The translations under genes and the position numbers were made by a program. Positions 59,233 to 59,529 of a stretch of 64,000 nt of DNA are shown here, piece by piece. Position 1 is the first letter of the stretch. Every line of letters begins with the position of its first letter. The notes beneath the pieces are model-generated. The model did no database searches and was not told the origin of the DNA. It saw nothing but the letters and a program-made list of their open reading frames with translations. Location: the NCBI RefSeq assembly GCF_044647545.1, contig NZ_CP172818.1; one strand, given 5' to 3'. The stretch is from Escherichia coli. Its GTDB lineage: Bacteria > Pseudomonadota > Gammaproteobacteria > Enterobacterales > Enterobacteriaceae.

Positions 59233-59309
59233 CGCGGGGTGGAGCAGCCTGGTAGCTCGTCGGGCTCATAACCCGAAGGTCGTCGGTTCAAATCCGGCCC
59301 CCGCAACCA
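59233..59309 (+). tRNA. metZ: initiator tRNA-fMet (CAU), copy 1
   Basis: cgcggggtggagcagcctggtagctcgtcgggctcataacccgaaggtcgtcggttcaaatccggcccccgcaacca: 77 nt with a CAU anticodon, three G-C pairs in the anticodon stem and encoded CCA. Confidence 0.97.
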
Positions 59310-59342
59310 ATTAAAATTTGATGAAGTAAAGCAGTACGGTGA

Positions 59343-59419
59343 CGCGGGGTGGAGCAGCCTGGTAGCTCGTCGGGCTCATAACCCGAAGGTCGTCGGTTCA
59401 AATCCGGCCCCCGCAACCA
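59343..59419 (+). tRNA. metW: initiator tRNA-fMet (CAU), copy 2
   Basis: Identical 77-nt sequence to copy 1. Confidence 0.97.
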
Positions 59420-59452
59420 ATCAAAATTTAATGAAGTAAAGTAGTACGGTGA

Positions 59453-59529
59453 CGCGGGGTGGAGCAGCCTGGTAGCTCGTCGGGCTCATAACCCGAAGGT
59501 CGTCGGTTCAAATCCGGCCCCCGCAACCA
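59453..59529 (+). tRNA. metV: initiator tRNA-fMet (CAU), copy 3
   Basis: Identical 77-nt sequence to copy 1. Confidence 0.97.

Follow-up and report, generated by a model that had tools for sequence, protein, structure and literature searches.

The metZWV initiator tRNA array in an Escherichia coli genome: evidence for an ancient triplication beside a probably corrupted island copy

Escherichia coli has four genes for initiator tRNA, namely metZ, metW and metV, which lie in one operon at 63.5 min and encode three identical copies of tRNA1-fMet, and metY (PMC3017606). The level of initiator tRNA tracks gene copy number, deletion of metZWV leads to cold sensitivity and relaxed initiator selection, and ppGpp lowers the expression of the operon (PMC3017606). 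The fourth gene, metY, likewise encodes an initiator tRNA (tRNA-fMet2), but it differs from metZWV in being a single-copy gene at the head of metY-nusA-infB, with other regulation, a minor share and, in K-12, A46 rather than G46 (PMC3017606). The metZWV genes of K-12 MG1655 (b2814-b2816, NC_000913.3 2947387-2947683) carry the RefSeq label 'tRNA-initiator Met(CAU)' and are located between mltA (b2813) and amiC (b2817).

The metV gene is a known hot spot for accessory DNA. In PAI-CFT073-metV, accessory genes (c3405-c3410) are found directly 3' of metV, as they are at the locus described here, and this metV-adjacent set is retained in UPEC and in SMS-3-5 (PMC2831201).

The window analyzed here, a 64-kb stretch of E. 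coli DNA, contains exactly three tRNA genes according to ARAGORN, all of them tRNA-Met(cat) and all on the + strand (Table 1); metY lies outside it. An initial annotation of this DNA had described three identical 77-nt CAU initiator genes in 110-bp units, and that description was confirmed by ARAGORN, Rfam, Tandem Repeats Finder and the initiator hallmarks considered below. The three 77-mers are identical to one another, and each matches K-12 metZ, metW and metV at 77 of 77 positions. Every copy scores 61.4 bits against Rfam RF00005 (gathering score 29), and Tandem Repeats Finder reports a period of 110 at 59231-59531, with 2.7 copies, 98% matches and no indels. The two spacers are both 33 nt long, have exactly the sequences that had been quoted earlier, and differ at the three positions 3 (T/C), 11 (G/A) and 23 (C/T). 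The pattern is far beyond chance, and thousands of independent genomes have the same array.

Table 1. Coordinates of the metZWV array and its surroundings in the window
Feature	Coordinates	Strand	Evidence
mltA (membrane-bound lytic murein transglycosylase A), divergent upstream neighbor	57927-59024	-	IMT16316 annotation transferred via exact alignment
metZ promoter (predicted) and short leader	59192-59232	+	TTGCAT (59192-59197), 16-nt spacer, TATAGT (59214-59219), G+C-rich discriminator GCGCATCC
metZ, initiator tRNA-fMet1 (CAU), CCA encoded	59233-59309	+	ARAGORN, Rfam; 77/77 vs K-12 metZ
spacer 1 (ATTAAAATTTGATGAAGTAAAGCAGTACGGTGA)	59310-59342	+	sequence comparison
metW, initiator tRNA-fMet1	59343-59419	+	ARAGORN, Rfam, K-12 comparison
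spacer 2 (ATCAAAATTTAATGAAGTAAAGTAGTACGGTGA)	59420-59452	+	sequence comparison
metV, initiator tRNA-fMet1	59453-59529	+	ARAGORN, Rfam, K-12 comparison
copy of the 5.5-kb metV-amiC island, most likely corrupted	59530-63627		colinear with L002 17032-22583
K-12-like patch within the block, G's retained	63316-63354 (to ~63371)	+	38/40 vs K-12 metV terminator region
amiC 3' part (N-acetylmuramoyl-L-alanine amidase), downstream core neighbor, intact	63642-64000	-	annotation of intact relatives

ARAGORN does not discriminate between initiator tRNA-Met, elongator tRNA-Met and tRNA-Ile(k2C), and the initiator hallmarks were therefore read directly from the sequence. ARAGORN places the anticodon cat at position 35, and the minimum free energy fold is a cloverleaf. 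The 1:72 pair is C x A, non-canonical in the Rfam alignment and with position 1 unpaired in the fold; the absence of a Watson-Crick pair at 1:72 is a formylation determinant of bacterial initiator tRNA. The D stem (GAGC/GCUC) provides A11-U24, and a purine11-pyrimidine24 pair in this stem is a defining feature of bacterial initiator tRNA. The variable loop AGGUC places G at position 46, which is the tRNA-fMet1 type. The anticodon stem (UCGGG/CCCGA) has three G-C pairs at its end (G29-C41, G30-C40 and G31-C39), the importance of which for initiator tRNA is covered in PMC3017606. Charging with Met, formylation and use of the P site by the tRNAs of the window are predicted from their 100% identity to the experimentally characterized K-12 metZ/W/V products. 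The array is the textbook metZWV operon, already known, and it has all the testable features of the metZWV family except the downstream terminator.

Upstream of metZ, the 44 nt at 59189-59232 are the same as in K-12, base for base. This upstream stretch of the window includes tgaaaacgcgagcggagtatagtgcgcatccacgga, which served as a homology arm for deletion of metZWV, and the known promoter-down mutations of the operon fall in and beside the -10 box (PMC3017606). The promoter hexamers TTGCAT and TATAGT were assigned by reading and are predicted elements. A generic promoter and terminator scan called neither the metZ promoter nor the metV terminator, the latter because its 13-nt loop exceeds the limit of the scan, and both elements were judged instead from identity to K-12, from the literature and from direct folding. 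The metV hairpin folds at -16.3 kcal/mol (z -3.5) in IMT16316/L002 and at -11.1 kcal/mol in K-12. The corresponding search for an intrinsic terminator after metV in the window gave a fold of -1.7 kcal/mol, no better than shuffled sequences; the terminator is lost in the window because of bases missing from the block that follows metV, and we attribute this loss to corruption of that block rather than to the biology of the strain. On the other side of the array, the start codon of mltA is read as 'cat' at 59022-59024, and tblastn with the MltA protein of K-12 finds 100% matches in relatives.

The resemblance to K-12 MG1655 extends from the three 77/77 genes and the 110-bp period to spacer 1, the promoter, the leader, and the neighbors mltA upstream and amiC downstream. 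K-12 differs from the window in its spacer 2 allele, ATCAAATTTGATGAAGTAAAAGCAGTACGGTGA, and in its metV-amiC interval, which spans only 73 bp and includes a terminator of its own, where the lineage of the window has a 5.5-kb island. The window also resembles IMT16316 (NZ_CP023815.1) and its sister strains (FDAARGOS_497, Ecol_881, 1428 and others), which have the same array, the same spacers, the island in the same position and the same 17 kb of upstream sequence, bar one 1-nt indel. Unlike that of the window, the island of these strains is intact and has its five annotated genes and its terminator hairpin.

The intact 5.5-kb island between metV and amiC in these near-identical strains is a sugar-utilization island that also includes the metV terminator hairpin. 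Its genes, all on the - strand, encode a phosphoglycerate-dehydrogenase-like protein, a KpsF/GutQ isomerase, a MalY/PatB protein, a PTS EIIC and a PRD-domain regulator. The first base of the island is the one that follows the metV CCA, in the window as well as in L001 and L002. None of the five annotated genes encodes an integrase, and a search of the intact island with the last 14-25 nt of the tRNA, on both strands and with 1-2 mismatches allowed, found no direct repeat; the island is therefore not a classical integrative element. Judged from the published description, it is the conserved metV-adjacent gene set known from PAI-CFT073-metV (PMC2831201), and the insert of IMT16316/L002 differs from that pathogenicity island in being only 5.5 kb long and in having neither an integrase nor a tRNA 3'-end repeat. 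At several other loci (L025, L026, L018, L030 and others), mltA is adjacent to the array and amiC was not found within the ~3-9 kb fetched downstream. These amiC-distant loci suggest larger insertions at the same metV-proximal site, which fits the view of metV as a hot spot for accessory DNA.

The age of the triplication was approached by comparing copy number and spacers across genomes. A 540-nt query reaching from mltA to metV has matches in 5425 of the 5426 complete E. coli genomes, and an evenly spaced sample of 60 of these records contained three copies of tRNA-Met in 55 cases, two copies in two, a single copy in two and a partial match in one. A second query, consisting of spacer 1, one tRNA and spacer 2, demands at least three copies for its coverage and was covered, at a cut-off of at least 80%, in 5002 of 5425 complete E. 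coli genomes (~92%). The initial annotation had proposed just such a comparison of copy number across strains, and its outcome is that three copies are the species-wide norm.

Beyond E. coli, a scan of one genome per species found 31 loci with adjoining identical copies; by ARAGORN, Ferrimonas and Marinobacter have 5-6 tandem tRNA-Met copies, and members of Enterobacterales have 2-4. All 26 of the Enterobacterales loci have the array beside mltA, amiC or both in tblastn searches (the genera being Escherichia, Citrobacter, Salmonella, Klebsiella, Atlantibacter, 'Enterobacter' pulveris, Tatumella, Yersinia, Dickeya, Edwardsiella, Xenorhabdus and Serratia), and the locus is therefore orthologous across Enterobacterales. 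Taken broadly, these other Gammaproteobacteria resemble the window in having 2-6 head-to-tail tRNA-Met(CAU) genes with 25-40-nt spacers, at the mltA-amiC locus in the case of Enterobacterales, and they differ from it in copy number and in the sequences of the spacers. In the Ferrimonas and Marinobacter loci (L023, L027 and L034), which have 5-6 tRNA-Met(CAU) genes, the initiator copies alternate with a divergent CAU tRNA that lies within 'spacers' of 111-220 nt. A further difference from the window concerns three-copy arrays of Citrobacter and Klebsiella (L006, L018, L030 and L033), in which the first copy has 2-3 mismatches to the E. coli 77-mer and copies 2 and 3 are identical to it; the variant is specific to the first position of the array.

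The tRNA sequences themselves are silent on the age of the array, since Dickeya, Yersinia, Edwardsiella, Xenorhabdus, Ferrimonas and Marinobacter all have the 77-mer without change, and purifying selection alone suffices to account for its identity. The spacers are more informative. Spacer 1 of Klebsiella and Citrobacter has only 1-2 mismatches to spacer 1 of the window, and in four of the five three-copy arrays from these genera spacer 2 begins with ATC and spacer 1 with ATT, the arrangement of E. coli; the exception is C. amalonaticus, with ATT at the start of both spacers. Since Klebsiella and Citrobacter thus have orthologues of both spacers at the mltA-linked locus, the triplication is older than their split from Escherichia, and the three-copy state goes back at least to the ancestor that these three genera had in common.

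The spacers may also contain traces of exchange between them. Spacer 1 of the window is the same in K-12, IMT16316, E. whittamii and Escherichia sp. MOD1, while spacer 2 of the window is the same in IMT16316 and Escherichia sp. MOD1-EC7003 and differs from the K-12 allele. Spacer 2 of K. spallanzanii has the A and T variants in common with spacer 2 of the window. The allele of the window (A11, T23) may be the older form, with the K-12 allele having moved towards spacer 1, and the spacer 2 alleles may record occasional conversion by spacer 1, which would be unremarkable. The two spacers of C. amalonaticus are apart by a single difference (one indel), and those of Atlantibacter subterranea differ at 2 positions and have lineage-specific changes common to both. 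Slow concerted evolution of the spacers is a plausible reading of these patterns.

Directly after metV the character of the sequence changes abruptly. The initial annotation was right to place the end of the array exactly at the edge of an anomalous block: the composition shifts at 59530, the first base past the metV CCA, and the block has 113 G in 4111 bases of the + strand, with a GC skew of about -0.8. Alignment shows 4098 nt of the window to be colinear with the 5552 nt of the intact island. Relative to the intact island, the block lacks 891 of the 998 G (~89%), 321 of the 1599 T (~20%), 230 of the 1233 C (~19%) and 42 of the 1722 A (~2%). Altogether 26% of positions are gone, in ~1,480 single-base losses, and the block has some 30 inserted bases and essentially no substitutions. 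The loss of T and C climbs from ~10% at the left to 40-65% near 62900-63400, and the retention of G depends on context (46% in CGA, 28% in TGA and ~1% in NGC). All five island genes are destroyed, the longest open reading frame being 105 aa. The block was sought in the 5,426 complete E. coli genomes and is absent from all of them; a search of a public gene index for the 105-aa reading frame was equally negative. Exact identity to L002 restarts at 63628, 14 nt ahead of the amiC stop codon.

Over the 17 kb to the left of this block, the window and IMT16316 agree at 99.994%, the sole difference being one missing A. This base is absent at position 57881, between tcdA and mltA, where the window reads GCGAGGTT-TCCCTCAC and IMT16316 reads GCGAGGTTATCCCTCAC; either a real indel or a minor sequencing error could account for its absence. 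Because ~1,480 single-base losses stand beside 17 kb with one difference, the block is to be ascribed to technical corruption and not to evolution, and it is most likely an artefact rather than a property of the cell's DNA. To our knowledge, no mutational process removes one base type at ~90%.

Two features of the block bear on its origin. The K-12-like patch near its right end (Table 1) was sought as a hybrid with the island among the 5,426 genomes, and none was found; island-bearing genomes have coding sequence of the PRD gene at that place. In addition, the left junction ATTATCTGAATACCCAAG resembles the K-12 sequence ATTATTGAACACCCTAACG. Together, patch and junction suggest, by inference only, either a consensus guided by a K-12-like reference in which the island was filled from very poor data, or manipulation in silico. 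Three other accounts of the block were considered and rejected. The surviving G's, in CGA, TGA and CCWGA contexts, had prompted the idea of a bisulfite- or deaminase-like G-to-A conversion with protected CpG/Dcm sites, but the alignment has 2 G-to-A columns against ~890 G-to-gap columns. The block is also not a pure subsequence of the IMT16316 island, since the exact test fails on the ~30 insertions and the K-12-like patch, and a natural island variant carrying the patch has 0 occurrences in 5,426 genomes.

Several alternative readings of the locus must be weighed against this evidence. The initial annotation had suggested that the near-perfect repeats indicate recent amplification or ongoing gene conversion, and one can indeed point to the identity of the tRNA parts, to spacers that are apart at only 3 of 33 positions, to the two-copy and one-copy variants within E. 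coli, and to the near-identical spacers within C. amalonaticus and Atlantibacter. A recent local amplification particular to the strain or lineage is nonetheless not borne out: three or more copies occur in ~92% of complete E. coli genomes, spacer 1 is the same in K-12, E. whittamii, IMT16316 and the window, and the ATT/ATC distinction, which is common to several genera, marks spacer orthologues in Klebsiella and Citrobacter. Very active conversion fares no better, in that a 77-mer invariant across orders explains the identity of the tRNAs unaided, and we consider recent amplification and very active conversion, taken together, very unlikely. What stands of the conversion claim is its slow form, to which C. 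amalonaticus, Atlantibacter and the two-copy and one-copy variants point, whereas in the lineage of the window the spacers stay distinct and orthologous. The corruption next door raises a different concern, namely that the tandem copies are themselves a collapsed or expanded repeat produced by assembly, so that copy number would be unreliable; the adjoining 4.1 kb are corrupted, and the 1-nt deletion relative to relatives at 57881 points the same way. Yet 57882-59529 is base for base the same as in IMT16316 and many complete genomes, both spacer alleles included, and three copies are the normal state, which makes an assembly origin of the array extremely improbable.

The opposite doubt, that the block is real DNA in the form of a strand-asymmetric, hypermutated or engineered derivative of the island, draws on its sharp edges, one at the end of the tRNA and the other 14 nt before the amiC stop codon, and on the context-dependent retention of G, which is unlike pure random thinning. 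It must also be conceded that near-total loss of G, a gradient of T and C loss and a K-12-like patch fit no documentable standard error profile, which counts against the technical reading. Even so, a real derivative would have to have sustained ~1,480 losses in 5.5 kb with almost no substitutions, beside 17 kb in which a sister strain differs only once, and to have lost five genes and the operon terminator; it would moreover contain a K-12-like patch where coding sequence is expected, and occur in no public genome. We regard real DNA of this kind as extremely unlikely, and the more specific proposal, that one base type was nearly stripped from one strand of cellular DNA by an unknown strand-specific process or by engineering, as so improbable that it deserves almost no weight. 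No observation speaks against identifying the array as metZWV. We are highly confident in the combined reading in which the array is metZWV, the triplication is ancient, and the adjoining G-poor block is a corrupted copy of the island and a technical artefact.

A working model of the operon can be put together from two sources: gene identity, promoter sequence, synteny and conservation come from this analysis, and operon structure, the single promoter, gene dosage and ppGpp control come from the literature. One promoter just 5' of metZ drives the co-transcription of the three genes as a tricistronic precursor. On general knowledge of tRNA maturation, this precursor would be cut by the general tRNA-processing nucleases in the A/U-rich 33-nt spacers and at the 5' ends, with CCA already encoded, and in intact genomes transcription would stop at the hairpin and U run past metV. 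Through gene dosage, the three metZWV copies, together with metY elsewhere, set how much initiator tRNA the cell has, and this in turn influences how well cells grow in the cold and how faithfully start sites are selected. Selection maintains the triplication, while unequal recombination or conversion now and then alters the copy number and homogenizes the spacers.

For users of this genome, the consequence is one of quality control, in that 59530-63627 is best regarded as unreliable, and whatever stands out in it, such as the odd composition and the missing genes and terminator, should not be read biologically. The comparison of spacers adds a small point to what is known of the operon, as it dates the triplication and reveals what is plausibly slow concerted evolution. 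The array itself, metZWV, is the main source of initiator tRNA in E. coli, and its dosage affects cold growth as well as initiation fidelity.
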